A program made the translations under genes and the position numbers. Source: Chloroflexota bacterium (GTDB lineage Bacteria > Chloroflexota > Dehalococcoidia > UBA2247 > JAUWOP01). From it: a stretch of 64,000 nt of DNA. Location: positions 5,894-69,893 of the forward strand of contig JAUWOP010000002.1 in the NCBI GenBank assembly GCA_030612045.1, in the 5' to 3' direction. The notes under the pieces are model-generated. The model worked only from the letters and a program-made list of their open reading frames with translations. It made no database searches and had not been told where the DNA came from. This document shows, one piece after another, positions 4,565 through 61,455 of the stretch. Numbering within the stretch: the first letter of the stretch is position 1; each line of letters begins with the position of its first letter.

Positions 4565-4770
4565 ACATGGACGGCTGCCCACCAACGAACCATGAAAATA
4601 AGTTGTCATTGCGAGTCTTTTCCCCTTGTCATTGCGAGCAAAGCGAAGCAATCCCATCGCCACTCCCACCGCCGAGGTTGCTTCGGCACTGCGTGCCTCG
4701 CAATGACACACTATGGGGACGCTCCTCGCAATGGCAGATGTGGGGATGAGGCTATTTTCGGAATAAAGAG
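4565..4770. repeat. composite hairpin repeat array: linker module (ggctgcccaccaacgaaccatgaaaata) followed by nested GTCATTGCGAG...CTCGCAATGAC inverted-repeat unit
   Basis: Nearly identical modules recur at 20941-21030, 24817-24960, 30908-31015, 56327-56395 (inverted), 56902-57060 and 61327-61455. Each has an internal GAAGCAATC(T/C)C / GAG(A/G)TTGCTTC hairpin and ends AATGACA(N)ATGGGG. Confidence 0.85.
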
Positions 4771-4839
4771 TTTGCTATTCAGTAGCCTTGTCCTTATGAT
4801 ATAGTTCACTTTTGCGTATAAGAGAAGGGTGTATCAGGG

Positions 4840-6543
4840 ATGTTGGATGAGTTTAGTCTTATACTGGATATAGCTATTGTTCTGGGTGCAGCTTTAGCAG
4901 GAGGGTTGGTCGCCCGCTTCTTGAAGCAGCCTACCATAATAGGTTACCTCCTGGCTGGAGTTATCATTGGTCCTCATGTGTTTGGCTTAATTCATGAATC
5001 GGATGAAATAAGGGTACTGGCTACTATTGCGATTGTGCTACTCCTCTTCACTCTTGGGATAAAGTTCTCGCTACGGGAAATGATTCGGGTGAGGAAGGTA
5101 GCTATTGGGGGTGGTATATTTCAACTTCTGGCTACTACAGGGTTGGGAATAGGTATTGCCACCCTCCTTGGATGGTCGCTTCATGAGGCAGTAATCTTCG
5201 GCTTTCTAATTGCCCTCAGCAGCACGATGGTAGTAATCGGTATGCTTACCGAGCGTGGGGAGTTGGAATCAGTACATGGTCGGGTGATGATAGGAATCCT
5301 CCTGATGCAGGATATTGCTGCCGCTTTCATGATGTTCATCCTTCCAGCACTGGGAGACTCAGGTGGGAACCTGCCCCCCGTACTGGGGATGGCAGTCCTT
5401 AAAGCTGTGCTATTCCTAGCTTTAGTCTTGCTCCTGGGAGCATGGGTAGTACCTCGATTCATAAGGCGTGTAGCGGGTCAAGGACCCAGGGACAGGGAGC
5501 TGTTCATACTTTCCAGTGCTGTGTTGTGCTTCGGAGGTGCCTTTGGCGCCTACTATTTTGGTTTGTCGGCGGCTTTGGGTGCTTTTGCCATCGGGCTTCT
5601 CATTAGTGAATCTGACTTCGCCCATCAGGTGCTTGGCGATATGATACCCCTGCGTGATATCTTCTCCGCCCTTTTCTTTGTGTCAGTAGGAATGCTTGTT
5701 GACATATCTTTTATGGCGGGAAGTATCGGCACTGTCATTGTAGTAGCTCTAGTGGTTATTCTGGGTAAGTTTCTTATCTGCTCTGCTACCGCCAGGCTCT
5801 TCGGTTATAGGGGTAAGACAGTACCCCTGGTGGGGGCGGGAATGATACAAGTTGGGGAATTCAGCTTCGTGTTAGCAGAGCTTGGGCTAGAGACAGGGGG
5901 AATTTCAGAGCACCTATATTCGCTGATTCTTGCCAGTGGTATGATTTCCATTATCCTCACCCCATTTGTCTACACACTGACAACCAACCTCAGCACCAGA
6001 TTGATTCGAGTGAGAGGGCTGAGGTCTCTCACAGGGGTTGGTGCACCACAATTAGTTGAGGAGGTAGCGAAGATTTCTGACCATGTAGTTATTTGTGGTC
6101 ATGGTCGTGTAGGTGGTAGTGTAGCCCGGATGCTGGGGCAGTTAGAGATTCCATATTTGGTCATTGACCTCGACCCGGCGATTATCTCCAATCTCCGGGA
6201 TGAGGGGATTCCCTGCGTCTACGGGGATGCTGGTAACCGGGAGGTGCTTTCCAAGGTGGGACTTAAGGATGCAGCCCTTTTGCTGATTGCTATGCCTGAC
6301 CCTATGGCAGCGAGGCTTACTCTCGACCACGCTCTCCATATTAACCCTCATCTGGATGTTGTGGCACGTGTTCATAGCGATTTCGAGCTTGATTTCTTGC
6401 GGGGAAGGGGAGCTTCTGTGCTGGTCCAGCCGGAGTTTGAGGCAAGCATAGAGATGGTGCGGCATGTCTTGTGCCGATTGGGATTGCCCGAGGACAAGGT
6501 GAAGGAGTTTGTCAACAACTGGAGAGCAACATGCCCTGTATAA
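4840..6543 (+). CDS. Kef-type (CPA2) cation:proton antiporter with C-terminal RCK/TrkA-N domain
   Basis: N-terminal Na+/H+ exchanger TM domain, then a VVICGHGRVGGSVARML Rossmann (TrkA-N) motif. Confidence 0.8.
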   Translation: MLDEFSLILDIAIVLGAALAGGLVARFLKQPTIIGYLLAGVIIGPHVFGLIHESDEIRVLATIAIVLLLFTLGIKFSLREMIRVRKVAIGGGIFQLLATTGLGIGIATLLGWSLHEAVIFGFLIALSSTMVVIGMLTERGELESVHGRVMIGILLMQDIAAAFMMFILPALGDSGGNLPPVLGMAVLKAVLFLALVLLLGAWVVPRFIRRVAGQGPRDRELFILSSAVLCFGGAFGAYYFGLSAALGAFAIGLLISESDFAHQVLGDMIPLRDIFSALFFVSVGMLVDISFMAGSIGTVIVVALVVILGKFLICSATARLFGYRGKTVPLVGAGMIQVGEFSFVLAELGLETGGISEHLYSLILASGMISIILTPFVYTLTTNLSTRLIRVRGLRSLTGVGAPQLVEEVAKISDHVVICGHGRVGGSVARMLGQLEIPYLVIDLDPAIISNLRDEGIPCVYGDAGNREVLSKVGLKDAALLLIAMPDPMAARLTLDHALHINPHLDVVARVHSDFELDFLRGRGASVLVQPEFEASIEMVRHVLCRLGLPEDKVKEFVNNWRATCPV

Positions 6544-6548
6544 AAATG

Positions 6549-6840
6549 TAACTACTCAGACAGGATAACAGGATACACATCAGGTAGAGATAGAGACCCT
6601 CCCCCCTCTATCTCTGTTGTTTGGACTGTTAGACAGTTAAACAAGGGGTTGCAACCTCTTGTTCATTTCCTCAGTGTCCTCGGTGAACTCTGTGGCTTAC
6701 CATAGTCGTTGAATGGTTGGGCTGCTGGTTTTGGTTGTCGTTAATCGTTAAAGGTCTTGACGAGTTGCGCAACCCTTTATCCTTCACCGTTCCCTTTCCT
6801 CTGTGAACTCTGTGGCTATCAATTACTGGCTGAGTAGTTA
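6549..6840. repeat. intergenic repeat cluster (family D): GTAACTACTCAG...CTGAGTAGTTAC inverted termini, with internal direct repeats CTCGGTGAACTCTGTGGCT and CTCTGTGAACTCTGTGGCT
   Basis: The GGTAACTACTCAGCC...GATAGCCACAGAG module recurs at 20855-20900, 27805-27835, 52612-52650 and 13990-14003. Confidence 0.7.
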
Positions 6841-8292
6841 CCTTATCTCTTTATGATACCTCTCCAAACCATCTAGCAAAACCCCCAGATTATAGTGGGC
6901 TTCGGCATAGTTCGGATTTACTCTCAATGCCTCCCTGAACTCAGCCTTTGCCTCTTCATACCTCTCCAAATCCTTCCCTAGTAAAATCCCCAGATTATTA
7001 TGGGCTTCGGCATAGTTCGGATTTACCCTCAGTGCCTCTCCGTATTCAGCCTCTGCCTCTTCACATCTCTCCAAATTACTTAACAAAATCCCCAGATTAT
7101 TATGGGTTTCGGCAAGGTCTGGATTTACCCTCAATGCCTCCCTGAACTCAGTCTCTGCCTCTTCACATCTCTCTAAATCCCCTAGCAAATTCCCCAGATT
7201 ACTATGGGCTTCGGCATAGTTCGGATTTATCCTCAATGCTTCCCTGTATTCAGCCTCTGCCTCTTCATGCTTCTCTAAATTCCCTAACAAAACCCCCAGA
7301 TTATTATGGGCTTCGGCAAGGTCTGGATTTATCCTCAATGCTTCCCTGTATTTAGCCTCTGCCTCTTCATGCCTCCCTAGATTCCCTAGCAAATTCCCCA
7401 GATTATTATGGGCTTCGGCATCGTTCGGATTTACTCTCAATGTTTCCCTGAACTCAGCCTCTGCCTCTTCATACCTCTCCAAATCCTTCCCTAGTAAAAT
7501 CCCCAGACTATTATGGGCTTCGGCATAGTTCGGATTTAGCCTCAGTGCCTCTCTGTATTCAGCCTCTGCCTCTTTAAAATCCTCGGCGTAGTAGCAGGCA
7601 TTGCCGCGGTAGAAATGACCCTCTGTGGTGAGATCCTTGATTTTCTTCAGCACCTCTGCCATCACAGCAGCTTCTCTCCTGGCGGCATCCGAAATCCCCT
7701 CCACCTTCCCTACAGTGCTGAGGGAAACAGGGGACTCCACGGCTACCTTTGCCGCCTCCCTAGCTTCTTCAGGCTTGATGCTGATTATGCGGGCTATCTC
7801 ATCTTCTATCTTTTCCATAGCACTCTGGAAGCTTATATTTTTCGTTAGCTCACTTATAATCATTTCCTTATCGGCATCACCGTGGTATGAAAGGATGGTC
7901 GTGCCATTCTTATCAGAAAGGGCTTCAGTAAGGTCTATATGGGCGTTTTTATTTCCAAGGGGGACAACGAACTTCTCCAGTCCGTCCAGCAGTCCCCATT
8001 CATAGGAGATGTTATGTCTCAGCTCATTATAGATGACGATACCGAAGTAGCACCTCCTCATTATCTCCCTGAGTCCCTCATCCGTTTTCACTCCTGCCGA
8101 TATCTCTCTCCCCGTGTGAACCTCAAACCCCCTCCCCTTAAGATAATCTATCAAGATGCGCTCTATCCGGCTTGGATTATCTCCCGATGTAAATGCGAGG
8201 GCTAAGAATACGGACTTGGGGTTAACCCTCTGCTCAGTTTCCATATTAATTCTCCGTCCTCCGTAGCTGCTAATAAAAGGAGAGTTGGTCAA
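6838..8292 (-). CDS. TIR-like (flavodoxin-fold) N-terminal domain protein with nine C-terminal TPR repeats
   Basis: The N-terminus SVFLALAFTSGDN...IERILIDYLKGRGFEVHT...CYFGIVIYNELRHNISYEWGLLDG resembles TIR/DUF1863-type domains. The C-terminus has nine 34-aa repeats of the form NPNYAEAHNNLGxLLGxLERxEEAEAEYREALR. The repeats are near-identical at the DNA level. Confidence 0.55.
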   Translation of the reverse strand: MTNSPFISSYGGRRINMETEQRVNPKSVFLALAFTSGDNPSRIERILIDYLKGRGFEVHTGREISAGVKTDEGLREIMRRCYFGIVIYNELRHNISYEWGLLDGLEKFVVPLGNKNAHIDLTEALSDKNGTTILSYHGDADKEMIISELTKNISFQSAMEKIEDEIARIISIKPEEAREAAKVAVESPVSLSTVGKVEGISDAARREAAVMAEVLKKIKDLTTEGHFYRGNACYYAEDFKEAEAEYREALRLNPNYAEAHNSLGILLGKDLERYEEAEAEFRETLRVNPNDAEAHNNLGNLLGNLGRHEEAEAKYREALRINPDLAEAHNNLGVLLGNLEKHEEAEAEYREALRINPNYAEAHSNLGNLLGDLERCEEAETEFREALRVNPDLAETHNNLGILLSNLERCEEAEAEYGEALRVNPNYAEAHNNLGILLGKDLERYEEAKAEFREALRVNPNYAEAHYNLGVLLDGLERYHKEIR

Positions 8293-11939: not shown

Positions 11940-12605
11940 ATGATGAAGAATAGGCTAAGTGAAGAGACAATCGCTATGCGAGTAGCTAAGGAGATTGAAG
12001 ACGGTTTTTTTATCAATCTAGGGATTGGTATCCCTACTCTGGTCTCCGATTTCGTTCCTGAAGATAGGATGGTGATGTTCCAGTCGGAGAATGGTATTCT
12101 AGGTATGGGGGGACTCTTCCCTGCAGGAGAGGGAGACTTCGACCTGGCTAATATGTCCGGGCAGTCCGTAAAGCTCGTGCCTGGCGCCTCTTTCTTCGAT
12201 TGTGTCTACTCCTTCGACATGATTAGAGGCAAACATCTCGATGCGGCTGTATTGGGGGGATTTCAGGTATCAGAGAAGGGTGACCTGTCGAACTGGATGC
12301 TGAACGAGAGAAAAGTGGGTGGGGTAGGAGGGGCAATGGATGTAGCAGTAGGTGCCAAGAGGCTTTTCATCGCCATGACGCATACTGATAAGAACGGGAA
12401 TGCCAAAATAGTCAAGGAATGCACCCAGCCTGTTACCGCCCAAAGGTGTGTAAACACAATATTTACCGACTTGGCGGTTATTGAGGTAACTGAGGAAGGG
12501 CTATTACTGAAAGAAATAGCCCCCGGTTGGCAGGTAGAGGAGGTTCAAGCACTCACTGAACCCAGGCTTCTAGTAAGTAGCGACCTTAGAGAGATTACCC
12601 TCTAG
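11940..12605 (+). CDS. 3-oxoacid CoA-transferase subunit B
   Basis: ENGxLGxG motif (SENGILGMGG) carrying the catalytic Glu. Confidence 0.8.
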   Translation: MMKNRLSEETIAMRVAKEIEDGFFINLGIGIPTLVSDFVPEDRMVMFQSENGILGMGGLFPAGEGDFDLANMSGQSVKLVPGASFFDCVYSFDMIRGKHLDAAVLGGFQVSEKGDLSNWMLNERKVGGVGGAMDVAVGAKRLFIAMTHTDKNGNAKIVKECTQPVTAQRCVNTIFTDLAVIEVTEEGLLLKEIAPGWQVEEVQALTEPRLLVSSDLREITL

Positions 12606-12750
12606 TGTAGTGTAATTGTAATAACTATACAGTTTGTCATTCCGTGCTTGACACGGAATCCATCCCTGGACCTTCTGGATTCCCGCTTTCGCGGGAATGA
12701 CATGGGGCGCTTCATTGTCGAGTCATTTAGGAGACACTACACTAGAAGTA
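12601..12750. repeat. MITE-like element (family B): perfect 11-bp terminal inverted repeats CTAGTGTAGTG/CACTACACTAG flank a two-hairpin core TGTCATTCCgtg..cacGGAATCC...GATTCCCGCtttcGCGGGAATGACATGGGG
   Basis: A near-identical copy including the flanks lies at 43030-43206. Core variants lie at 57145-57215, 61201-61267 and 25847-25886 (inside a CDS). Confidence 0.8.
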
Positions 12751-13923: not shown

Positions 13924-14005
13924 TAGAGTTATAGAGTTCATAGAGTTATAGAGTTTGTTGAGTTGGGGGGGAACTCAATGAACTCAACAACCTGAGTAGT
14001 TACTG
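13922..14005. repeat. intergenic repeat family C (AGAGTTATAGAGTT tandem motifs + GGGGAACTCAATGAACTCAA)
   Basis: Related copies lie at 20905-20935 and 25003-25090. The element ends in a CCTGAGTAGTTAC family-D fragment. Confidence 0.7.
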
Positions 14006-15305: not shown

Positions 15306-16080
15306 CTACGAAATCTTCACTGCTCGAAGTCTGGCAGCGCCGCAGCAAGCTCTTGGAAGAGACAATCCCTCTGCTCTACGTTGAGGGATTGTCGACGAGA
15401 GACTTCAAACGAGCTCTCAGTCCGCTATGGGGTAAGAGCGGTCTCTCCCACTCCAGTGTTTCACGGGCGAATAAAGCCCTCAAGGAGGCCTTCAACAACT
15501 GGCATCACCGTGACCTATCCCTCAAGGAGATAATTTTCCTCTTTCTGGACGGCATCTACCTGGGGGTAGGGGGTAACAGCCGCAATAGGGAAGCTGTGCT
15601 GGTAGCCCACGGTATTACTAGCGAAGGGAAACGGGTAGTCCTGCACCTGAGCCTCGGGGGCAGGGAGAGCACCGAGTCATGGAAGGGAGTGCTAAATGAC
15701 CTGGTGGGGGGCGTGGCTTAAGGCGGCCTCAGCTATTCATTACTGATGGTAACCAGGGGCTGCTTAGGGCGATAAAAGATGTCTGGACGATGCCCGGGAT
15801 GAAGCCAAGCAGTTTCTGTCCCGTTACAGCAGGGAGGTCCCCACTGCTTGTGAGACCTTAGCCAGACACATCGAGGAATGCCTCACCTTCTATCGCTTCC
15901 CTGAGCGTCACTGGAAACACATCCGCACCAGTAATGTCATTGAACGAGCCTTTAAGGAGGTTAAGAGAAGGACCAGTGTGGTTGGTCGCTTTCCGAATGA
16001 AACCTCGGCCCTGGTGATGGTTTTCAGTATTCCGAATGAGGAGCGGTTGAAGTGGCAGAAAGTCAGGATGAGGGCTTGAG
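15290..16080 (+). pseudogene. IS256-family (mutator-type) transposase remnant, 5'-truncated and frameshifted
   Basis: The ORF fragment LYVEGLSTRDF...IFLFLDGIYLGV...LVAHGITSEGKRVV is the IS256 transposase middle region. The C-terminal part (DAREEAKQFL...FPERHWKHIRTSNVIERAFKEVKRR) continues in another frame at 15720-16080. No N-terminal region and no terminal inverted repeats were found. Confidence 0.7.
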
Positions 16081-20059: not shown

Positions 20060-20910
20060 TGCTGGCAGATTCCCACGCTCACCTTGATTGGGATGCCTTT
20101 GACGAGGATAGAGAGCAGGTAATCTCTCGAGCTCGGGAGGCAGGAATAGAGCTTATCCTGACTGTAGGGTGTAACCTGGAATCAAGCCGAACAGCTATCA
20201 GACTGGCGGAGGAGCATCAAGACATTCTGGCTGCTGTGGGCTTTCATCCCAATGATACCACTGGGGTAAAAGAGAGTGATTTGGAAACTCTAGCAGAACT
20301 TTCTCAGCACCCCAGAGTAGTAGCTATCGGTGAAATTGGATTAGATTTCTACAGGGAATGGTCACCGCACGAAACTCAGATTGAGGTATTTCGACACCAG
20401 TTGAGATTAGCTCAAGAAGTAGACCTCCCTGTAGTAATCCACTGCCGTAATGCACACTTAGAGATGTTAGAAATTCTCGACTACTGGGTTAGCCATCTTA
20501 CCTTACATCACAGTAACCATCCCCCAGGAGTTATTCACTGCTTCAGTGGTGATGTCGCCATTGCACAGAGGTACATTAGCCTGGGATTTCTTATATCTCT
20601 AGCGGGACCTGTTACCTATCCTTCTGCTCGTAATACTGTGAAGGTAGCGCAATATTTGCCTCCAGAATCCCTCCTAATAGAGACAGATAGCCCCTTCCTC
20701 GCCCCCCAGGACCATCGTGGCAAACGCAACGAACCAGCCTACCTGACTACTACAGCCAAAAAGGTAGCACAGGTTAGGGAAATGTCTCTCGAATCAGTCT
20801 GTAAATCTACCACCCAAAATGTCCGGTGCCTCCTCCGTCTGGAGGATAAAAACAATGTAACTACTCAGCCGACGATTGATAGCCACAGAGAACACGAAAA
20901 GGGTTATTGA
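20056..20910 (+). CDS. tatD: TatD family metal-dependent hydrolase, with a ~25-aa C-terminal tail encoded by a family-D repeat
   Basis: SHAHLDWDAF...GFHPN...GEIGLDFY is the TatD signature. The ORF is 284 aa, versus ~255 aa typical for TatD. The last ~55 nt (20855-20910) belong to the GTAACTACTCAGCC...GATAGCCACAGAG repeat. Confidence 0.8.
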   Translation: MMLADSHAHLDWDAFDEDREQVISRAREAGIELILTVGCNLESSRTAIRLAEEHQDILAAVGFHPNDTTGVKESDLETLAELSQHPRVVAIGEIGLDFYREWSPHETQIEVFRHQLRLAQEVDLPVVIHCRNAHLEMLEILDYWVSHLTLHHSNHPPGVIHCFSGDVAIAQRYISLGFLISLAGPVTYPSARNTVKVAQYLPPESLLIETDSPFLAPQDHRGKRNEPAYLTTTAKKVAQVREMSLESVCKSTTQNVRCLLRLEDKNNVTTQPTIDSHREHEKGY

Positions 20911-21045
20911 GTTTATAGAGTTCATTGGGTTCATTACGAGCCTTTCCCCTTTGTCATTGCGAGCGAAGCGAAGCAATCTCAGTGGGGGGAGGGGCGATGA
21001 GATTGCTTCGTCGCTAGCGCTCCTCGCAACGACATGGGGATGATG
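20855..21045. repeat. repeat cluster: family D, family C and one GTCATTGCGAG hairpin unit
   Basis: See the family descriptions above. 20941-21030 is a single A-type hairpin. Confidence 0.8.
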
Positions 21046-24799: not shown

Positions 24800-25160
24800 A
24801 GGTAATCGTTCACCTGTGTCATTGCGAGCCCTTTCCCCCTGTCATTGCGAGCGAAGCGAAGCAATCTCATCGTTACTTCCCCCGCCGAGATTGCTTCGGC
24901 ACTGCGTGCCTCGCAATGACAGATTATGGGGACGCTCTTCGCAATGACAGATGTGGGGATCAGTCTATTTTCAGAGCAAAGAATCTCATTGGAGTGGAGA
25001 TGATGAGTTTATAGAGTTTGTAGTGTTATAGAGTTGATGGGGTTGGTGGGGAACTCAATAAACTCAATAAACTCAAAGAACTCATCGAGGGAGGGATGTC
25101 ATTTCGACCGAAGGGAGAAATCTTGAGCGTAAGATTCCTCACATGCGTTCGGAATGACAA
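24800..25160. repeat. dense intergenic repeat array: two nested A-type hairpin units, a family C unit and a degenerate B-type unit (25097-25158)
   Basis: The flank ATCGTTCACCTGTGTCATTGCGAG is shared with the 30903 copy. Confidence 0.85.
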
Positions 25161-25166
25161 TTTGGC

Positions 25167-27866
25167 ATGGGTGATAGGTTACTACGCTTCCTCAAAGCGC
25201 ATAAGCATTATGTATTTGCCCTCTTGATTCAGTTAGCACTGGCAGGATTCTTCTTCAACACCTGGGATGGCTTTGTATTCCTCACCTCCACACAGCAGTT
25301 TTTGGAAGGCATCTCCCCCTATCAGATAGGACTGGAAGCTCCACCATATGTATTCTACTCCCTCTTCGACACTGCGGAGAACTGGTATTCCTACCCACCC
25401 CTGCCCTTGTTCATGTTCTGTATCGGCTATGCCCCCTACTTCTGTCTGGGAGGAGATAGTCTCATCCCAGCACGGATACTTATCAAGCTTACCTTCATTC
25501 TGGGGAACTTGCTCTGTGCCTACCTGGTTTATAGATTCGTTGCCAGGACAAGTTCACAGAAGAGGGCTTCCCATGCAGAGAAATTAATCCTGTATAATCC
25601 CTTTCTCATCTATATCGCAGCAGTATGGGGGATGTTTGATATCTGGATGGTGAACTTCGTGCTGCTAAGTCTACTCTGCCTCCGCGGGAAGAGATGGGTT
25701 AGGGGTGGCATCTGCTTGGGGCTGAGCATTCTTACTAAACCACTGACCCTGATACTTGCTCCTCTTCTCGCTGTCCATGTGTGGAACAAGTCCGATACAA
25801 ATAGAGGCAAAGATAGAGAAAGGGAACACTCAGTCACTTCCTGTCATTCCCGCGAAGGCGGGAATCCAGGTGGGGTGGGACGGTCTCTGTCTCGATTCTC
25901 TATCTTTAAGCCCCTCCTGTTTCTCATCTGTGCCGCAGCTATCTTTATGCTGGTCTCTCTCCCCTTCATACTCCAATCCCCTGATGGATTCATCCACCAG
26001 GTCGTAGGTGAACATGCTGACCGCCCTCCCTTTGGCTGGTCTACCATGCAACTACTCTATGGGGGACAACACCTCAATGATTACTTCAGTATTAGCTTCA
26101 TCCCCTGGCTGCCCTGTTCGACAATTACCATCATTTCCACCGTCCTGATGATAATAGCGGCTGGAATAATCATCCTCTATTACCGCCTGTATCGCCAGCA
26201 GAGCGAAAAGTCGCTTCTGACCATGCTGTTCCTGACAATGTTATGCTTCGTCGTTTTCAGCAAGGGTGTAAGCCCCCAACACCTCGTTATCCCCATTGTC
26301 CTCTCTCTGACTCTTCTTTATGCCTACAGCGATTATAAATTTATACGGCAACGTGAACTCAGCCGCTATTATAAGATTGTTACCTTCTGTGGTCTGGGAG
26401 GAGTCTTCCTCGATGGGGGGCACTTCTTACACTTCCTCCAGCCAGATATTATCCTCTCCCTGACGGGGAAGACCGCCCTGGAGATGGAACAGGTGATAGC
26501 AGGAAGCTTTCCTGCCTCACCATATCTCTACTATGCTCTGACAGGGGCGATAACTCTAGCTTTTATCATCTGCACTGTAGTTATAGCAGCCATCATATTG
26601 TTTCGAGCCCTGGGGGGTATTATCCCCGCTATTGCCAGAAAGAGTGCCGGAGCAGTGCTACGGACAGGTCTGACTTCGAAACGGAGATTGGCTGAAAGGA
26701 TAGTAGCAGTCTTTCTGGTGTGTGCCTTTATTTTCATCCCTCTGTTGGCAGGCGGAGCAGATTTGCGGGGGGCAGAGCGAAACCACCCTCCCCCACCTCC
26801 CCCCTCCTCTTTCTATCGTCAGGATAAGCTTACAGGTGTGCTATATTACTGCTGGTGGAGAAACTCCTCATTTGACCCCACCAGGCAGTGTGATAACTGG
26901 CAGTGGGCAGGACTGACACCTGAGGAGGGCTACTATCACATCAATCAAGCTTACCTCAGAGAAGACATCCTTCAGATGAAACAGTCAGGCATAGACTTCG
27001 CCATAGTTCCCATTTCAGGTGAGATGAGAGAGAGCTACAATGCCTTCGCCATGGCTGCTGAGGAGGAGAACTTCCGCTTTGCTCCTATGATAGAGTTGTA
27101 TAACCTTGATATCGATAGACCCATTGTAGAGAAGGAAGGTCTCGACTCAGTGTCAGAGGTAAAAGAGGATTTACTGGATAAGATAGATGCTGCCCTGGCA
27201 AGAAGGAATTCTCCTGCCTACCTGTGGTATGAGGATAAACCAGTAGTATTCTTGCATCCCGATGTCTACTTTATATCTGAAGGTAACCTGCCCTCACCCT
27301 ATAGCACAGCAGAGTTCTGGCAGGAGATTGAATGCGAGGTAGAGCAAAAATATCATGAGGATATCTTTTGGGTAGCTGACTATAGCAGTTGGCGGGAGAA
27401 GGGAGAAGATATGGCGGTAGCGCCTGACTGTTTTGATGCAGTATTCTTCCGCTCTCCCTCTACAGTATGGGCTAGCAGCAACGGGAATGATTCAGCCCTT
27501 GATACATGGCAGGCGGAGATGCAGAGATTAAAAAGCTACTGCTTAGGGCAAGATATGCCCTATATCACAACAGTCATGCCCTACTATAATGACAAAACCA
27601 TGCGGGAACCAGGAATGGAGATACCCCAGGATATTGGCGGCGATTCTACATACGATTTACTATGGGAAATAGCTCTTGAGGAACGACCAAACCTGATTAT
27701 AATAGCCAGTTGGAATGAATACTTCGAGAGTTCCTGCATCGAGCCTACCCGGGAGTTTGGCACGCTCTTTCTTAACAGAACACAAGACTGGAACAGCAAA
27801 TTTAAAGGTAACTACTCAGCCACAGCCCTGACCTCCAATCATTCTCTGCAAATAGATACTTACTAG
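25167..27866 (+). CDS. large polytopic membrane protein: N-terminal GT-C-like multi-TM glycosyltransferase-like domain, a Pro-rich linker, and a C-terminal soluble glycoside-hydrolase-like domain
   Basis: More than 10 TM helices in the first 520 aa, a PPPPPPSS linker, and a C-terminal ...IIASWNEYFESS motif reminiscent of GH99/TIM-barrel families. Contains an in-frame B-type repeat insertion (25847-25886). The C-terminal tail is encoded by a family-D repeat. Confidence 0.55.
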   Translation: MGDRLLRFLKAHKHYVFALLIQLALAGFFFNTWDGFVFLTSTQQFLEGISPYQIGLEAPPYVFYSLFDTAENWYSYPPLPLFMFCIGYAPYFCLGGDSLIPARILIKLTFILGNLLCAYLVYRFVARTSSQKRASHAEKLILYNPFLIYIAAVWGMFDIWMVNFVLLSLLCLRGKRWVRGGICLGLSILTKPLTLILAPLLAVHVWNKSDTNRGKDREREHSVTSCHSREGGNPGGVGRSLSRFSIFKPLLFLICAAAIFMLVSLPFILQSPDGFIHQVVGEHADRPPFGWSTMQLLYGGQHLNDYFSISFIPWLPCSTITIISTVLMIIAAGIIILYYRLYRQQSEKSLLTMLFLTMLCFVVFSKGVSPQHLVIPIVLSLTLLYAYSDYKFIRQRELSRYYKIVTFCGLGGVFLDGGHFLHFLQPDIILSLTGKTALEMEQVIAGSFPASPYLYYALTGAITLAFIICTVVIAAIILFRALGGIIPAIARKSAGAVLRTGLTSKRRLAERIVAVFLVCAFIFIPLLAGGADLRGAERNHPPPPPPSSFYRQDKLTGVLYYCWWRNSSFDPTRQCDNWQWAGLTPEEGYYHINQAYLREDILQMKQSGIDFAIVPISGEMRESYNAFAMAAEEENFRFAPMIELYNLDIDRPIVEKEGLDSVSEVKEDLLDKIDAALARRNSPAYLWYEDKPVVFLHPDVYFISEGNLPSPYSTAEFWQEIECEVEQKYHEDIFWVADYSSWREKGEDMAVAPDCFDAVFFRSPSTVWASSNGNDSALDTWQAEMQRLKSYCLGQDMPYITTVMPYYNDKTMREPGMEIPQDIGGDSTYDLLWEIALEERPNLIIIASWNEYFESSCIEPTREFGTLFLNRTQDWNSKFKGNYSATALTSNHSLQIDTY

Positions 27867-27957: not shown

Positions 27958-29406
27958 CTATTCTTCCTCAATGTCCTGGTAGATGCTGCTGAACTGGGTC
28001 AGGGCAGATTCGAGGTTGTCGGCAATTTCCCGGGCGAGGATGTCTGGCTCTGGTAAGTTTGCGGAATCCTCAAGGCTTTCATCCTTTAGCCAGAATATGT
28101 CGAGGTTTACCTTGTCCCGTTGCATCAACTCCTCATAAGTGAAAGCTCTAAATCTCTCGGCTTCTTTTCTTTCGTGTCGATTCTGGGGATTGTAGCAGCG
28201 GACAAAATCTAGCAGGTCATCATCTCGCAAGGTATTGGTTTTAAGAGTAAAGTGCATATTGGTTCTAAAATCATATATCCAGAGCTTGTCTGTCCATGGC
28301 TTTTCGCTGCCCGGCTTGCGGTCAAAGAAGAGGACATTTGCCTTGACGCCAGGGCGGTAGAATACACCTGTGGGCAACCTCAAAAGAGTATGAACATCAC
28401 ACTCCTGAAGTAGTTTCATTCTCACTGTCTCACCGGCGCCACCTTCAAAGAGGACATTGTCAGGCACGACTATAGCAGCCCGACCATTAGTCTTGAGGAG
28501 TGTTTTCACATGCTGGAGGAAATTCAATTGTTTATTAGATGTGGTCGCCGAGAAGTCTGGACGTTCATAGACCTGTGATTCCTTATCAGCCTTTCCCTCA
28601 CCATTAACTATGGTGTAGCTGCTTTTCTTGCCGAAGGGCGGATTGGTGAGTACCATATCAAAACGCTCACCGGGGTCAGCTATGAGGCTATCCCCGCTTT
28701 CAACAGGAGTCTCAATCCCATGTAGATAGAGATTCATCACACAGAGTCTGACCACACCATCAACAATATCCTTCCCTCTGAAAGCGTTGAATTTAAGGAA
28801 TTCCTTCTGGTCTATGTCCAGGTTATTGTGTTTGGGGATATAGTCATAGGCTGCCAGCAAAAAGCCACCTGTGCCACAGGCAGGGTCGCAAATAATCATT
28901 TCCGGCTCAGGTCTCATAGCCTCAACAATAGCTTTGATGAGAGCCCTAGGGGTGAAATACTGCCCAGCGCCGCTCTTAACATCCTCGGCGTTCTTCTGCA
29001 GAAGACCCTCATATATCTCCCCTTTGACATCGACATCCAGCCCAACCCAGGTTTCGGCATTGATAAGTTCAATAAGGCGCTTGAGCTTGGCTGGGTCTTG
29101 AATCCTGCTTTGAGATTTGCGAAAGATAATGCCGAGCATACCGCTCTCTTTGCTCAGGGACTCAAGGATAAGACGGTAATGAGCCTCCAGGGCGGCTCCA
29201 TCCCTCTCCCGCAGGCTTAGCCAATCAAAGCCCATGGGAATGGTTGAGGGCTTGTTGAAAGGATGCCTGGTCTGTTCATCAGCCATCTTCAGAAACAGCA
29301 GGTAAGTTAGCTGTTCCACATAGTCGCCATAGCTTACACCGTCATCACGAAGCACATGGCAGTAGTTCCACACTTTTGAGACAATTGTCGATGATTCATT
29401 GGGCAT
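27958..29406 (-). CDS. hsdM: type I restriction-modification system methyltransferase subunit
   Basis: HsdM N-terminal domain and N6-adenine MTase motif DMVLTNPPFGKK (NPPF). Confidence 0.9.
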   Translation of the reverse strand: MPNESSTIVSKVWNYCHVLRDDGVSYGDYVEQLTYLLFLKMADEQTRHPFNKPSTIPMGFDWLSLRERDGAALEAHYRLILESLSKESGMLGIIFRKSQSRIQDPAKLKRLIELINAETWVGLDVDVKGEIYEGLLQKNAEDVKSGAGQYFTPRALIKAIVEAMRPEPEMIICDPACGTGGFLLAAYDYIPKHNNLDIDQKEFLKFNAFRGKDIVDGVVRLCVMNLYLHGIETPVESGDSLIADPGERFDMVLTNPPFGKKSSYTIVNGEGKADKESQVYERPDFSATTSNKQLNFLQHVKTLLKTNGRAAIVVPDNVLFEGGAGETVRMKLLQECDVHTLLRLPTGVFYRPGVKANVLFFDRKPGSEKPWTDKLWIYDFRTNMHFTLKTNTLRDDDLLDFVRCYNPQNRHERKEAERFRAFTYEELMQRDKVNLDIFWLKDESLEDSANLPEPDILAREIADNLESALTQFSSIYQDIEEE

Positions 29407-33714: not shown

Positions 33715-33720
33715 TTTGCT

Positions 33721-43029: not shown

Positions 43030-43206
43030 TTTTGGTAAGTAGTGTAGTGTAATCGTAATAACTATACAGTTTGTCATTCCGTGCTTGACACGGAATCCAT
43101 CCCCTAGACCTTCTGGATTCCTGCTGGAGTTTACCCCGTACTTGATACGGGGCAGGAATGACATGGGGTACCCTATTGTCAGGTCATTTAAGAGACACTG
43201 CACTAG
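43030..43206. repeat. MITE-like family-B element (second full copy with TIRs TAGTGTAGTG / CACTGCACTAG)
   Basis: Identical flanks and core to 12601-12750, plus an extra internal hairpin CCCCGTActtgaTACGGGG. Confidence 0.8.
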
Positions 43207-55825: not shown

Positions 55826-56218
55826 ATGTTTTGTGGTAAGTGTGGCGCCGAGAATCCTGAAGATGCAGCCTTTTGTGGTAAGTGTGGAGCTGACCTGGCC
55901 TCACCTGCCCCGAGTGAGCCCATGTCCGCCAGGGAAAGTACCGTGATGCAGCCAATGGAAGAGCGCAAAGCGATGGTGAGCTTCCAACTTTCTGTTGGAC
56001 CTATTCTCAGGTACCTGGCTTATGCGGCAGCAGGGTGTTTTGTGATTGCTGGCATCTGCTCCGCTGCCCAATCTGGTCACTTCAACGGAGCTATTAGGGC
56101 TAGCTGGCTTTTTGTTTATTTCGGTCAGGCAGCTTTTTATGGTGGCTTACTATATGCCTTTTCATACCTGGTGCCCTGGCTTCTTGAGCTCAAAAGGGCT
56201 GAGGGGAAGACAGAATAG
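55826..56218 (+). CDS. zinc-ribbon membrane protein, paralog of 55306-55737
   Basis: Identical N-terminus MFCGKCGAENPE and an identical 5' region including the RBS (gaaaggaggtaaaATGttttgtggtaagtgtggcgc). Confidence 0.6.
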   Translation: MFCGKCGAENPEDAAFCGKCGADLASPAPSEPMSARESTVMQPMEERKAMVSFQLSVGPILRYLAYAAAGCFVIAGICSAAQSGHFNGAIRASWLFVYFGQAAFYGGLLYAFSYLVPWLLELKRAEGKTE

Positions 56219-56326
56219 GAGAAGGCTGTTCTCAGGTAAGCACCTTTTAGAAGGCTGTTGACACAGCTAAATTAGGTTATTCTGATTATAGCATCTTGCA
56301 AAAATAACCGTATTATGTCATTGCGA

Positions 56327-56395
56327 GGAGCGCTAGCGAGATTGCTTCGCTTTGCTCGCAATGACAACCTATTTTCATGATTCGTCGGTGAGCAG
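56327..56395. repeat. A-type hairpin + linker module in inverted orientation
   Basis: GTCATTGCGAGgagcgctagcGAGATTGCTTCGctttgCTCGCAATGAC, then CCTATTTTCATG (reverse complement of CCATGAAAATAGG). Confidence 0.8.
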
Positions 56396-56446
56396 TTACA
56401 CATGGGGATTTGCTATCTTAATTCTTATTCTCGCGAGGAGATTTCC

Positions 56447-56935
56447 ATGGTAGAGCCACTGGAGCAGATTTTCGCTTCGTGTAAAGTTGAAAGGAAAGAG
56501 CTTATTCCCTTACTACAGGAAATTCAGGAAAAGCTGGGCTATCTCTCTGATGATGCCATGAAGGCTGCTGCCGAATTTCTGCATATTCCTCCGAGTGCTG
56601 TCTATGGAGTGGCTACCTTCTATAACCAGTTCCGTTTTGTTCCTGCGGGGAAACATCCCCTGAAGATCTGCCTGGGGACTGCCTGTCACATACAGGGGAG
56701 CAAGCTCATTATGGAAGCTATGGAGCGAGAGTTGGATATTAAGGCGGGGAATGTTACCCCTGACCATGAGTTCAGCCTGGATAGGGTTGCCTGTGTGGGG
56801 TGCTGCGCTCTGGCTCCAGTAATAATAGACAAAAAGACAGTCTACCCCCGGATGACCCCCTTCAAGGTAGAGGAGGTGCTGGCTCTTCTCAAGGAAGAAA
56901 ATGCCCATGGGCGGTTGCCCACCAACGAACCATGA
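56447..56935 (+). CDS. NuoE-like thioredoxin-fold [2Fe-2S] ferredoxin subunit (NADH dehydrogenase 24 kDa / HoxF-HydC type)
   Basis: The four Cys (C..C...C..C: CLGTACHIQG...CVGCCALAP) of the NuoE family. The C-terminal tail HGRLPTNEP and the stop codon are supplied by the repeat linker module. Confidence 0.8.
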   Translation: MVEPLEQIFASCKVERKELIPLLQEIQEKLGYLSDDAMKAAAEFLHIPPSAVYGVATFYNQFRFVPAGKHPLKICLGTACHIQGSKLIMEAMERELDIKAGNVTPDHEFSLDRVACVGCCALAPVIIDKKTVYPRMTPFKVEEVLALLKEENAHGRLPTNEP

Positions 56936-57240
56936 AAATAGGCTGTCATTGCGAGCGAAGCGAAGCAATCTCGGTGGGGCGGCGATGAGATTGCTTCGTC
57001 GCTACGCTCCTCGCAATGACACATTATGGGGGCGTGCCTCGCAATGACAAATGTGGGGTCAGTCTATTTTCGGAATAAACACTCATGGGCGGCTGCCCAC
57101 CAACGAACCATGAAAATAGTGCTTCCTTGCAACGACTTTGCCTGTCATTCCTGCGGAAGCAGGAATCCATGTGGGGTGGGTGTAGATTCCCGCCTGCGCG
57201 GGAATGACATAGTCTATTTTCGAAGCAAAGAGTGTGAATC
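56902..57240. repeat. 340-bp repeat array: linker, nested A-type hairpin unit, linker (CTATTTTCGGAATAAACACTCATGGGCGGCTGCCCACCAACGAACCATGAAAATAG), B-type two-hairpin unit, linker
   Basis: Same module order (in a different arrangement) as 61195-61455. Confidence 0.85.
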
Positions 57241-57243
57241 AGG

Positions 57244-59136
57244 GTGACCTTTGAAGAGATTCAGCACCATGCCATGGCGGAGTGGGAAGCCCTCCATGCA
57301 GGTGAGATACCGTGTGTCCGTATTGGTACGGCTACTTGTGGTAGAGCAGCCGGTGCACTATCAATAGCTCACATCTTTGCCACAGAGATTGAAAGGCGGG
57401 GTATTGAGGCTGCTCTCCTGCAGGTAGGCTGTTTAGGGCTATGTTATGCTGAGCCTATCGTGGTGATAAGCAAGCCAGGGATGCCCCTAATTTGTTACTC
57501 TAATGTAACCCCGGAGATTGCCCTACGGTTGATAACAGACTACCTTGAAGATGATGACCCCTGCCTCGACCTGGCAATGGGGACACTGGAGGGTGGTGGT
57601 GAGGAGCTCCTTTATATCCCTGAGCTCACCCGGTTTGAGTATGAACAGCACTTTCTCCTGAAACGGTGTGGATATATAGACCCACTAAACATCAATCACT
57701 ATATTGCTACCGGCGGTTACCATTGTTTGAATAAGATGTTACAAACTCCTCCTCATGTAATAATTGATGAGATAGAGCGTTCCGGACTCAGGGGGAGGGG
57801 CGGGGCAGGATTCCCTACTGGTCTGAAGTGGCGGCTGTGTCATGATGCCGTTAACCTTCTCAGATATATAGTATGTAATGCTGACGAAGGAGACCCCGGT
57901 GCCTTTGTGGACCGCGTCATCCTGGAGAGTGACCCTCATGCCATCCTGGAAGGGCTACTTATTGGCGCCCATGCAGTAGGTGCCTCCAGGGGTTATGTTT
58001 ATTGCCGCTCAGAGTATCCTCTGGCTCTGCAGTGCCTTCACCATGCTGTTACCCAGATGAAAGATTATGGACTTCTGGGCAACCACATTCTGGGTTCAGA
58101 TTTCAATTTTCACCTTGAGATAGTTGAGGGCGCAGGAGCATTCGTGTGTGGTGAGGAGACGGCGCTTCTGGCTTCTATCGAAGGTAGACGTGGTATGCCA
58201 CGCCCTCGTCCTCCCTATCCTGTCGAGTCTGGCTTATGGAACAAGCCTACACTGGTTAATAATGTAAAAACCTTTGCTTGTATTCCTCTCATACTCGACT
58301 ATGGTGCTGACTGGTTTACCAGTATTGGGACAGAAAGAAGCAAAGGGACACAGGTATTCGCCTTAACAGGTAAGGTGAGACACACCGGATTGGCAGAGGT
58401 GCCAATGGGCACGACTCTCCACCAACTGATATATGACATTGGTGGCGGGATACAAGGAGACAAGACATTCAAGGCAGTCCAGATAGGGGGACCCTCAGGG
58501 GGATGCCTTCCTGCAGGGTTATTGCATACCCCAATAGATTTTGATTCCCTTGTTAATGTAGGTGCTATGATGGGTTCGGGTGGGATAGTAGCGATGGATG
58601 AAACCAGCTGTATGGTAGATATTGCCCGTTACCTTCTCGATTTTATTCAGAAGGAATCCTGTGGAAAGTGCTCTCTATGCCGCCTGGGGACCAGACAAAT
58701 GCTTCAGATATTAGAGGATATTGTGAGTGGGAAGGGTAAGGAAGGAGATATTGAGCTACTTACCAATCTTGCCGAGGATATTCAGGTGGGTTCTCTCTGT
58801 GGGCTGGGTAAGACAGCACCTAACACTGTTCTTACTACCCTGCGTTACTTCCGAGAGGAATATGAAGCCCATATTCGAGAGAAATGCTGCCCAGCACTAG
58901 TATGCAAAGACCTTATCGCCTACTATATCCTGCCTGAGAGGTGTAGTGGCGCCTGCGACCATTGTGTAGTTACTTGCTCTACCAAGGCAATCAGTAGCAA
59001 TGAAGTAGGAGTAAAGGTTATTGACCAGAGCAAGTGTGTCAAGTGCGGGACATGCCTTGAAGTCTGTCCTCTAGAGTACAGTGCAGTAATTAAGGTATCA
59101 CCTCCTGACTCTATACCAGAAGCGGGACAGAGATAG
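57244..59136 (+). CDS. NuoF-like NAD(P)H-binding flavoprotein subunit with N-terminal thioredoxin-like [2Fe-2S] domain and C-terminal 2x[4Fe-4S] ferredoxin domain (HndC/HoxF/FdhB type)
   Basis: GRGGAGFPTGLKW FMN site, a C-x2-C-x2-C-x3-C soluble-ligand cluster, and C-terminal CxxCxxCxxxCP x2. Confidence 0.85.
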   Translation: MTFEEIQHHAMAEWEALHAGEIPCVRIGTATCGRAAGALSIAHIFATEIERRGIEAALLQVGCLGLCYAEPIVVISKPGMPLICYSNVTPEIALRLITDYLEDDDPCLDLAMGTLEGGGEELLYIPELTRFEYEQHFLLKRCGYIDPLNINHYIATGGYHCLNKMLQTPPHVIIDEIERSGLRGRGGAGFPTGLKWRLCHDAVNLLRYIVCNADEGDPGAFVDRVILESDPHAILEGLLIGAHAVGASRGYVYCRSEYPLALQCLHHAVTQMKDYGLLGNHILGSDFNFHLEIVEGAGAFVCGEETALLASIEGRRGMPRPRPPYPVESGLWNKPTLVNNVKTFACIPLILDYGADWFTSIGTERSKGTQVFALTGKVRHTGLAEVPMGTTLHQLIYDIGGGIQGDKTFKAVQIGGPSGGCLPAGLLHTPIDFDSLVNVGAMMGSGGIVAMDETSCMVDIARYLLDFIQKESCGKCSLCRLGTRQMLQILEDIVSGKGKEGDIELLTNLAEDIQVGSLCGLGKTAPNTVLTTLRYFREEYEAHIREKCCPALVCKDLIAYYILPERCSGACDHCVVTCSTKAISSNEVGVKVIDQSKCVKCGTCLEVCPLEYSAVIKVSPPDSIPEAGQR

Positions 59137-59206
59137 AAAATCGGGACACAGGGAAGGAGAATCATGAGTTTCTATCCTAGCCTCTACTTGAAGCAGGAGA
59201 CAATAG

Positions 59207-59968
59207 GTGGAAGCTGAACTTGTTACCCTGACCATTGATGATATCAAGGTTAAAGCTAAGAAGGGAATCAAGGTCCTGGATGCTGCCCTGGGAGCCGGTA
59301 TCTACATCCCTCACCTCTGTTACCTGCCTGAGGCTGAGGTTCCTCTTGCCTCCTGCCGTCTATGTTATGTGGAAATTGAGGGAAGGGGGATGGTTACTGC
59401 CTGTACCGAGCTAGTAGCTGAGGGGATAGTGGTGCATACTCACAATCCCCGGATTGATAGGCTGCGTCATACCACGATGAGGCTTATCCTTGCTAACCAC
59501 CCCATTGATTGTAGCTCCTGCCCTAGAAACAGAGATTGTGAACTTCAGAGGATTGCTGCCTACCTTCATATAAAGCTGGGAAATCCTTCTGGGTCCCCTT
59601 CCCTAAAGGGGGATTTAGGGGGATTTAGGGAAATGCCTCTCCGTGACCTTCCTATAGATGACAGCCATTCCCTGTTTATCTACGACCCCAATAAGTGTGT
59701 TCTCTGTGGTAAGTGTGTGATGATTTGTAATGAGCGTATGGGAGTAGGCGTTCTTAACTTTATCTTCCGTGGCTATAATACCAGGGTTGGCACCTTCAGG
59801 GAGATACCGTGGGGAGAAGCAGGGTGTATTTCTTGTGGAGCATGTGTAGCTGCCTGTCCTGTAGGCGCCCTGGTTCCTAAGAATATCAAGGTACTCTCCT
59901 TTACAACATCACCAGGTTGTTACGATGCACCACTTCATCACCATATTCATAGCCCAGGAGATCGGTAA
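59207..59968 (+). CDS. NuoG N-terminal-like iron-sulfur protein ([2Fe-2S] + [4Fe-4S] domains only, 253 aa)
   Basis: CRLCYVE...TAC 2Fe-2S motif, HPIDCSSCPRNRDCELQ, CVLCGKCVMIC and CISCGACVAACP. No downstream catalytic domain. The 3' end overlaps convergent proB by ~68 nt. Confidence 0.7.
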   Translation: MEAELVTLTIDDIKVKAKKGIKVLDAALGAGIYIPHLCYLPEAEVPLASCRLCYVEIEGRGMVTACTELVAEGIVVHTHNPRIDRLRHTTMRLILANHPIDCSSCPRNRDCELQRIAAYLHIKLGNPSGSPSLKGDLGGFREMPLRDLPIDDSHSLFIYDPNKCVLCGKCVMICNERMGVGVLNFIFRGYNTRVGTFREIPWGEAGCISCGACVAACPVGALVPKNIKVLSFTTSPGCYDAPLHHHIHSPGDR

Positions 59969-61123
59969 TCCTATTGGAGTGAGTCCCTTTAATTATATCA
60001 ATATCAGCCGAGCTATAGTTAGATATACCATGAGCAATAGAGTTCCCTTCAGGGTCAACAATATTGACTATATCCCCTCGCTGAAAATTCCCTCTTACTG
60101 CCTTTATGCCAGCGGGTAATAAACTGCCCCTCTCTTTGAGTGCCTGGGCAGCTCCAGTATCAATAAGGATTTCTCCTTTTTCGTAACGCTTCCGTTTATA
60201 TCCCAACCCACTTAGCATCCACCGCTTGCGACTCTCCAGTTGTGTAGTGATGGGAAGGAAACGGGTTCCTATCTGTTCTCCCTTTATGAGGCGAGGAATA
60301 ATTTCAGGGGTTCGCCCATCAGCAATAACTGTCATAACTCCTGAACTGGTAGCTAATCTGGCTGCTTCTACCTTGGTGACCATGCCACCAATGCCACGCT
60401 GTGAGAGGGTATCCCCGGCTAGCTGCTCAATGTGGCTGTCTATTCTCTCCACTACGGGTATGAGTTGAACTTCAGAATCAAGGTGAGGGTCAGCAGTGTA
60501 GAGTCCACCCACATCACTGAGGAGTACTAGTAAGTCAGCATCTACCAGATTTGCTACCATGGCTGAAAGGTTGTCATTATCACCAAATTTAGCTTCCCTA
60601 ATCTCATCGATAGCCACAACATCATTCTCATTTACTATAGGTAATACTCTGAGTTCCAATAGTCCCAGGAGGGTGTTACGCGCATTAAGGTAGCCAGCAC
60701 GGTCAGACATATCATTTTTGGTAAGCAGTGCCTGGGCTATAGTAATATTATGCCAGGAGAAGAGTTGCTCATAGGCATGCATCAGGCAGTTCTGCCCCAC
60801 TGCAGCCAGAACCTGTTTTTTCGTAGTGCTTGCACCTTTTCGTAGTGCTTGCACCTTTTTACGGTACTCACACTGGCAGCCTCATGCTCTTGAATGAGAC
60901 CAAGCTTGTGTCTACCTGCAGCAATTGCCCCTGAGGAAACGAGGACTATTTCTGCCCCCTGGCGATGCATTCGGGCTATTTGACCTACAAGGCTAGACAT
61001 TATCCCCAACTCGAGGTAATCGCCACCCCCAGTTATCAGATTAGCTCCTAGCTTTACCACCGCACGGTGATGATAAATATTTTCTATTTCGCCCATTCCA
61101 GTATTATATATCCTGAGTAACAA
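59901..61123 (-). pseudogene. proB: glutamate 5-kinase interrupted by a tandem 2x19-bp insertion (frameshift)
   Basis: ORF 60782-61123 encodes the ProB N-terminus (AVVKLGANLITGG...VLVSSGAIAAGRHKLGL). ORF 59901-60854 encodes the rest (KKQVLAAVGQ...PUA domain). The two are joined at a tandem duplication of cgtagtgcttgcacctttt (60822-60859). Confidence 0.75.
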
Positions 61124-61194
61124 ATCTTCAAAGCGATGCCTTAATTAAACTTCTTCTCGACGATGCTGAGCTTAAATTGATATAATACACCCGC

Positions 61195-61455
61195 ACCCAT
61201 TGTCATTCCTGCGGAAGCAGGAATCCAGGTAAGGCAGGTGTAGATTCCCGCGTAGGCGGGAATGACATATTCTATTTTCGAAGCAAACACTCATGGGCGG
61301 CTGCCCACCAACGAACCATGAAAATAGCCTGTCATTGCGAGCCTTTCCCCTCTGTTATTGCGAGCGAAGCGAAGCAATCTCGGTGGGGTAGAAGAGATTG
61401 CTTCGTCGCCATGCTCCTCGCAAAGACACATCGAGAATCTATTTTCGGAATAAAT
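61195..61455. repeat. repeat array: B-type two-hairpin unit, linker, nested A-type unit, linker
   Basis: 61201-61267 matches 57145-57215. 61327-61425 matches 56941-57050. Confidence 0.85.

Follow-up and report, generated by a model that had tools for sequence, protein, structure and literature searches.

The hairpin repeats of a 64-kb stretch of contig JAUWOP010000002.1, called the window in the following, were analyzed. Repeat families A, B, and D are, with a probability of about 0.7, Ssn-related motifs (SRMs), relatives of the hairpin sites of the Neisseria nuclease SsnA, and they are set in arrays resembling the Neisseria intergenic mosaic elements (NIMEs). Judged by sequence, their convergent pairs would be gene-less forms of a cassette in which two hairpins enclose an ssn gene. 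The repeats are a real, structurally constrained feature of the window, and they add an example to a known system, which was reported in 2025, without being a new one. Modestly new are the hairpin type of family A with its paired placement on either side of ssn genes, a frame of left and right element ends (LE and RE) around the arrays, and an in-frame insertion into a gene.

Hairpins of the window carry the frame of Ssn target sites

SsnA is a 94-aa GIY-YIG protein which binds the Neisseria sequence NTS (CGTCATTCCCGCGMAVGCGGGAATCYRG), an oriented extension of the dRS3 repeat, only as single-stranded DNA (ssDNA) and cuts a few bases upstream; RNA is not bound, and mutation of Y6, Y17, or E64 abolishes cutting (Chenal et al., Nat Commun 2025, PMC11893778). 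SRMs occur across phyla and are located within 5 kb of 71% of ssnA homologs; their authors themselves liken them to repetitive extragenic palindromes (REPs) and bacterial interspersed mosaic elements (BIMEs) with their REP-associated tyrosine transposases (RAYTs) (PMC11893778).

All half-units of families A, B, and D were found to have a common frame consisting of GTC, ATT plus two to five stem bases, a loop, and the complementary stem ending in AAT and followed by C. An earlier note on this DNA, made from the sequence alone, had described the repeat families and missed this GTCAT...AATC frame, which is that of NTS and SRMs; the partner of SRMs is a GIY-YIG ssDNA nuclease of about 95 aa. A scan of the window for GTC-ATT-stem(≥5)-loop-stem-AAT-C revealed 21 hairpins as compared to 0.3 ± 0.6 in dinucleotide shuffles, and perfect dRS3 sites (ATTCCC-N8-GGGAAT) were present four times with 0 expected. 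The earlier count of at least 12 loci had to be lowered: recurrent hairpin loci are real, but they number 11, ten of them intergenic and one inside a gene. The hairpins are almost always ordered as a (+) copy followed by a (-) copy, i.e., as convergent pairs, and the ssDNA folding of the arrays is far stronger than that of shuffled sequences (z about -5). The end sequence AATGACA(N)ATGGGG, formerly ascribed to every unit, was found at about nine of 15 unit ends and not at the remainder.

Family B and the copy inside a gene match NTS at almost every base. The in-gene hairpin at 25842-25869 (TGTCATTCCCGCGAAGGCGGGAATCCAG) equals the NTS consensus at 27 of 28 bases. The published SRM search motif, HGTCWYN(0-2)YYVSBRHN(0-5)WNVSBRGN(0-2)RNCYNB, has three matches in the window (12675-12702, 25842-25869, and 57182-57209) as compared to 0.26 expected, and these are family B right arms and the in-gene copy only. 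The SRM hallmark, a semi-palindromic hairpin with an oriented 5' GTCAT flank and a C directly 3' of the palindrome, is present. Double hairpins of family B, as described before, were found at 12.6 kb (12635-12702), 43.1 kb (43072-43163), 57.1 kb (57143-57209), and 61.2 kb (61201-61267). Based on the NTS, SRM, and dRS3 matches, each is made up of two NTS-like hairpins, the second one inverted, with a spacer between them; stem changes between copies are compensated (CCGTG/CACGG, CCTGC/GCAGG, CCCGC/GCGGG).

Family A proved to be the nested inverted repeat that had been proposed: its arms GTCATTGCGAG/CTCGCAATGAC occur 20 times at eight loci (≤1 mismatch) and enclose a central GAAGCAATCTC/GAGATTGCTTC hairpin. 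Family D is a pair at 25098-25158 (GTCATTTC...GAAATC/GATTCC...GGAATGAC). The loop and the internal loop of family A are longer than the SRM motif permits; the assignment of families A and D as SRMs is derived from the shared frame and from the gene neighborhood in other genomes.

Family A hairpins are spread over many phyla and flank GIY-YIG genes

Exact copies of the 26-nt core of family A (GTCATTGCGAGCGAAGCGAAGCAATC) were found in at least 120 loci of species-representative genomes from about ten phyla, and also on plasmids and in 105 viral contigs. The hosts among the matches listed belong to the Alpha- and Gammaproteobacteria, Desulfobacterota, Chloroflexota, Planctomycetota, Bacteroidota, Cyanobacteria, Omnitrophota, and others; they include Bradyrhizobium, Sphingomonadales, Rickettsiales, Legionellales, Coxiellaceae, and Calothrix. 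Within the same matches, 91 of 137 copies have an inverted partner within 110 nt; hence, the convergent pair is a general unit and not a peculiarity of the window.

Selection of family A-type hairpins by their 5-bp outer stem alone yielded 100 distinct inner sequences, and these fold better than shuffled sequences (p = 7e-10). Between conserved GAG and (C)GAA/GTG bases they contain a variable, covarying inner helix, e.g., GGCCAC-GAA-GTGGCC, AGTTGC-TT-GCAACT, or CCTGCC-GAA-GGCAGG. The commonest form contains GCGAAGC, an unusually stable DNA mini-hairpin. Compensatory changes, which the earlier note had observed between copies, are thus seen in family B stems and in family A inner helices. Covariation, the multi-phylum core, and identical copies at separate sites also bear out its view of structure-constrained, interspersed elements of the REP/BIME or MITE (miniature inverted-repeat transposable element) kind as opposed to decaying duplications.

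The 26-mer loci were inspected for neighboring genes. Three of the at least 120 loci harbor an open reading frame (ORF) of 89-97 aa with a GIY-YIG domain alone. Two of these genes directly adjoin a 26-mer hairpin; the third (L039) is located about 1.2 kb from the 26-mer and has its own A-variant hairpins at both gene ends. Additionally, loci were chosen from the protein side by the Ssn-like homologs P0110 (Chloroflexi; locus L130), P0072 (Anaerolineales), P0038 (Deltaproteobacteria), and P0123 (Marinimicrobia). All four genes (L129, L130, L249, and L250) have family A-type hairpins or close variants on both sides, among them GTCGTTGC... and GTCATTCT.... In total, family A-type hairpins were found on both sides of a PF01541-only gene of 89-99 aa at 7 of 7 loci examined in other genomes. 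The common layout of the cassette is hairpin(+), 10-16 nt, ATG...stop, and hairpin(-); in L016, the entire cassette comprises about 380 bp. The flanked proteins show a Tyr-Tyr spacing of 11 and a Tyr-Glu spacing of 47, which are the spacings of Y6, Y17, and E64 in SsnA; PF01541 is their only Pfam match, and the nearest PDB entry is UPF0213 (E = 4e-4). The convergent layout of the window pairs is the same as that around ssn genes elsewhere; hence, these pairs are most likely gene-less cassettes.

Several results weigh against this assignment. The SRM motif matches neither families A and D nor the left arms of family B. Searches by tblastn (E > 0.5), Pfam scans, and a crude GIY-YIG regular expression detected no ssn or GIY-YIG gene in the window, no such gene was found in about 10 kb of additional strain sequence, and an ssn-like gene was present in none of the 105 viral contigs carrying the 26-mer. 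A search with an array-encoded peptide as query gave no candidate ssn gene, and the GIY-YIG family, with over 8000 matches, is too large to single out the ssn gene of the window organism.

The window hairpins share with NTS and SRMs the oriented hairpin, the GTCAT head, the ATTCC.../...GGAAT stem, and the C after the stem; a number of hundreds of copies per genome in many phyla, mainly in intergenic regions; and, for family A-type hairpins in other genomes, the location on both sides of single-domain GIY-YIG genes of about 95 aa. They differ in that hairpins of families A and D are built from an outer stem of 5 bp, an internal loop with conserved GAG/(C)GAA, and an inner helix of variable sequence, that the host is probably represented by a Chloroflexota metagenome-assembled genome (MAG), that the hairpins mostly form tight convergent pairs inside LE/RE frames or shells of terminal inverted repeats (TIRs), and that no cognate ssn gene was seen within these 64 kb.

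Loci and modules of the window

The following loci were delineated, with (+) or (-) after the coordinates giving the strand.

4556-4767 (+): array 1, the same in strain contig L001, with LE 4556-4602, outer A arm 4604-4615, A hairpin(+) 4628-4653, degenerate A hairpin(-) 4674-4707, outer arm 4725-4735, and RE 4752-4767.
12601-12746 (+): MITE-like B element, a 13-nt perfect TIR enclosing a family B pair with NTS-like hairpin(+) 12636-12660 and hairpin(-) 12678-12701, the latter being a dRS3 match.
13925-13993 (+): C module with (Y)ATAGAGTT arms, a 9-nt period, and a G7 loop.
20905-21040 (+): partial C module 20905-20935 and A-like outer arm, with A hairpin(+) 20953-20978 and degenerate A hairpin(-) 20999-21033.
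24817-24980 (+): nested A unit with outer arm 24817-24828, A(+) 24841-24866, A(-) 24889-24920, outer arm 24938-24949, and RE variant 24965-24980.
25000-25159 (+): C module 25000-25085 and, after it, the pair of family D with hairpin(+) 25098-25122 and hairpin(-) 25133-25158.
25809-25907 (+): in-gene TIR element with one NTS-like hairpin, 25842-25869.
30920-30997 (+): A unit with A(+) 30921-30946 (26-nt type) and A(-) 30965-30996 (32-nt type).
43040-43206 (+): second MITE-like B element with hairpin(+) 43073-43097 and hairpin(-) 43117-43162, which carries a 27-nt loop insert.
56316-56414 (-): reversed element, a compact A unit 56316-56366 with A(-) 56340-56365 and, adjoining it, a reversed, diverged LE 56368-56414.
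56896-57229 (+): array between NuoE-like and NuoF-like genes, with LE 56896-56942, A(+) 56945-56970, A(-) 56989-57020, outer arm 57038-57048, RE+LE 57064-57120, B(+) 57144-57167, B(-) 57185-57208, and RE variant 57214-57229.
61201-61454 (+): array with B(+) 61202-61225, B(-) 61243-61266, RE+LE 61271-61328, outer arm 61331-61341, A(+) 61354-61379, degenerate A(-) 61394-61427, and RE 61439-61454.

The C modules at 13925-13993, 20905-20935, and 25000-25085 consist of 9-nt periodic ATAGAGTT arms flanking a G-rich loop. C-type modules (hairpins with 9-nt periodic GAGTTNNTT arms) were also observed beside family A-type hairpins in viral contigs; loci with such modules are 13925-13993 and 25000-25085 in the window and contigs L198, L192, and L237, with many copies in L198.

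The LE/RE frame

The earlier note had described a conserved linker which joins the units into arrays at four places. The full 56 nt were found only at 57064-57119 and 61271-61327; at 4565-4770 the two halves are located at the ends, and at 24800-25160 only the CTATTTTC half is present. Its interpretation as a joining spacer had to be given up, as the linker is actually two element ends side by side, RE (CTATTTTCGRARYAAA) directly followed by LE (...AACAC-CATGG-GGGC-N4-GCCC-ACCAACGAACCATGAAAATAG). Arrays begin with LE and end with RE, and a fifth, reversed copy of LE is located at 56368-56414.

A 25-mer of the linker gave no match in species-representative genomes; hence, these lack either the source species or its linker. 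A 22-mer was found in two JGI metagenome contigs only and in none of the viral contigs. Two unrelated metagenome contigs have LE and RE around hairpins which lack the GTCAT motif, and in one of these contigs the small stem GGGC/GCCC of LE is replaced by GGCC/GGCC. A covariance model of LE (R1) detected no copy in 100 loci of other phyla. The negative covariance search and the unrelated cargo in metagenomes indicate that LE/RE is a separate, lineage-restricted frame. Readings of LE/RE as integron attC sites, as retron parts, or as IS605 ends were dropped, as the vicinity contains no gene for an integrase, a reverse transcriptase, or TnpA/TnpB.

Two copies of LE touch the NuoE-like ORF: LE 56896-56942 supplies its last approximately 13 codons and the stop codon, and the reversed LE at 56368-56414 overlaps the start of its longest possible form; the ENA gene call starts downstream at 56447.

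Inverted-repeat elements and comparison of strains

Real TIRs were identified in three elements only. At 12.6 kb the TIR is perfect over 13 nt (12601-12613/12734-12746), at 43040/43196 it is imperfect with one mismatch, and at 25809/25896 it is perfect over 12 nt (AAAGATAGAGAA/TTCTCTATCTTT). Two perfect 11-bp TIRs had been reported for the B elements; the 12.6-kb copy has one, the 43-kb copy does not. The third element, 25809-25907, is a 99-bp insertion in frame inside an 899-aa glycosyltransferase-like ORF (25167-27866). It adds 34 residues, and the insert is absent from 12 homologs and present in the other strain.

ENA assemblies of the same population are 99.9% identical to the window. They contain two identical 167-bp copies of the B element, X after enoyl-CoA hydratase genes and Y before a radical-SAM gene (L126 16083-16600; L141 1-420), and the 12.6-kb copy is about 91% identical to these over a 172-bp alignment. 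TA is present on both sides of all three B-type copies and may belong to the TIR. Apparently, some hairpins travel in MITE-type shells, as indicated by TIR-bounded copies at several sites and by the in-gene copy.

The arrays are otherwise identical between strains, with two exceptions. The hairpin loop at 12687 is TTTC in the window and a 27-nt hairpin-bearing insert in strains L001/L127, and this insert is that of the 43-kb copy. Furthermore, the window has a single copy at 43040-43206, with the left flank of copy X on one side and the right flank of copy Y on the other. Three ENA assemblies, where X and Y are separate, lose synteny with the window at the right end of this copy, and Logan contigs stop within the element, some 30 bp from its left end (window 43069). 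The junction at 43206 reflects either recombination of X with Y or a chimeric contig.

Ordinary MITEs, i.e., derivatives of DDE transposons moved in trans via their TIRs with the hairpins as mere passenger sequence, are a reading which we regard as unlikely. It would account for the three elements with real TIRs, for the identical 167-bp copies X and Y with their about 91% identical relative at 12.6 kb, for the TA flanking all three B-type copies, which fits a duplication of the IS630/mariner type, and for the element inserted in frame. However, most units, namely the A pairs at 4.6, 20.9, 24.8, 30.9, 56.3, 56.9, and 61.3 kb as well as the D pair, lack any TIR beyond their hairpins, the three TIR types are mutually unrelated and all enclose GTCAT hairpins, and the flanking TA could itself be part of the TIR. 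No matching transposase was seen in the window, the only transposase trace being an unrelated IS256 fragment at 15353-15718; the IS200/IS605 or IS256 partner that had been considered is thus not supported. Neither the identity of the 26-mer across phyla nor its position around GIY-YIG genes is explained by this reading. Bacterial MITEs, including those inserted in frame such as Rickettsia palindromic elements and Correia elements, resemble the window elements in their size of 100-170 bp with TIRs, in identical copies at several sites, and in one copy located in frame in a coding gene; they differ in that such TIRs are present at two to three of about 11 loci only and that the common part is the internal hairpin and not the termini.

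Possible RNA-level role and relation to other repeat systems

A role at the RNA level, either as small RNAs (sRNAs) or as stabilizing, attenuating, or terminating hairpins like the REP/BIME of E. coli operons, appears quite improbable. Transcription of the array at 56896-57229 is probable, as the NuoE-like and NuoF-like genes on its two sides are co-transcribed as a rule, and the predicted folding of the arrays is strong (z about -5). Moreover, an NTS-like hairpin is contained in the published probe (GAGATTCCCGCCTACGCGGGAATGAC...) of FtrB, an sRNA of Francisella verified by Northern blot, so that this sRNA probably overlaps with a repeat of the kind analyzed here, and a weak match to Rfam FtrB is located at 57161-57216. 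Above threshold, though, Rfam recognized four tRNAs only in the window; no other family reached the gathering threshold, and the best sub-threshold matches in the arrays are at chance level. Terminator-like sites are not enriched in 56200-61600 (5 vs 4.1 expected), and SsnA does not bind RNA. According to the ORF map the hairpin loci are found between tandem, convergent, and divergent genes as well as within operons, and the pairs are symmetric on both strands. The varied contexts and the missing Rfam match speak against the dedicated sRNA that had been suggested, and the covariation fits ssDNA equally well. An RNA-level side effect of the arrays is possible.

Spread as REP/BIME by a RAYT, an IS200/IS605-like Y1 transposase, is very improbable: short imperfect palindromes, alternating orientation, and mosaic clusters would fit, but no Y1 transposase was detected among the scanned window ORFs (one scan covering the best 25 families), the conserved head is GTCAT and not the GTAG typical of REPs, and the genes enclosed elsewhere encode GIY-YIG and not Y1 proteins. 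As a comparison, the likeness to the REP/BIME-RAYT system extends to extragenic palindromes in alternating orientation, to mosaic clusters, and to a gene for a small nuclease with its own repeats on either side; the enzyme is of the GIY-YIG instead of the Y1/HUH type, the head sequence is different, and no RAYT was found among the scanned window ORFs.

NIMEs consist of dRS3 repeats flanking RS units of 50-150 bp and were described as Neisseria-specific (Bentley et al. 2007, PMC1797815). The window arrays share with them the perfect dRS3 sites, inverted hairpins alternating with short repeat modules, and arrays which differ or break between strains. In contrast to NIMEs, the modules LE/RE and C are unrelated to the RS families, and the arrays are short with two to three units. 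The window arrays are NIME-like, but they are not members of the NIMEs.

Genomic surroundings

The window encodes housekeeping functions, namely MetRS, HisRS, RNase Y, methylmalonyl-CoA mutase, and NuoEF-like proteins, as well as a restriction system of type I. For one window protein, the best homolog with a name is from a Chloroflexota MAG; with moderate confidence, the host is taken to be a probable member of the Chloroflexota. The fragment at 15353-15718 is a remnant of the IS256 family (Transposase_mut); its 122 aa correspond to positions 105-219 of the profile, which has 379, and it is unrelated to the hairpins. The region 27958-36468 comprises a type I restriction-modification locus (HsdM, HsdS, and HsdR) with PIN, DUF1828/1829, and DUF6978 genes, followed by a pair of a HigB-like toxin and an HTH-M78 peptidase. 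This region resembles a defence island and adjoins the 30.9-kb A unit.

Tandem 102-bp repeats at 6856-7574 are located within a gene for a TPR protein (6838-8292, minus strand); they represent coding repeat variation, and the alignment with strain L001 is offset there. At 60817, a 19-bp indel relative to the ENA strain L141 splits a ProB-like gene (amino-acid kinase plus PUA) into the ORFs 59901-60854 and 60782-61123, which form a single 404-aa gene in L141.

Proposed origin and significance of the arrays

In the SRM reading, the hairpins would form on ssDNA and be bound by Ssn nucleases, with cleavage a few bases upstream. The pairs of families A, B, and D would represent the gene-less, non-autonomous form of the hairpin-ssn-hairpin cassette and, combined with the LE/RE frame, C modules, and TIR-bounded MITE shells, would have given rise to intergenic mosaic arrays. 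The window genome presumably encodes a cognate Ssn acting on these copies. Spread may have occurred through Ssn, through MITE shells, or by recombination, and the arrays may influence ssDNA recombination.

Tentatively, and at somewhat less than even odds, we propose that the A-type hairpin (GTC-ATTGC-GAG-[helix]-GAA-GCAAT-C) is a distinct pan-bacterial class of Ssn targets and that LE...RE is an undescribed mobile or structured element. If so, the convergent family A pair would be a mobile gene-less form of the hairpin-ssn-hairpin cassette, Ssn cassettes would be the GIY-YIG-driven counterpart of REP/RAYT, and arrays of the NIME type would extend far beyond Neisseria.

Translations of the window contain 'LRFARND.../...RGND' peptides, and the hairpins are probably behind the short hypothetical proteins of this kind which clutter metagenome annotations. 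Such repeats also break or mis-join metagenome assemblies, as exemplified by the junction at 43206. The presence of A-type hairpins, which are outside the published motif, around Ssn genes of many phyla provides a wider set of candidate enzyme/site pairs for ssDNA tools. Identity with Ssn-type sites would explain intergenic sequences of a kind that is very common among uncultured bacteria, and NIME-like arrays are not limited to Neisseria.

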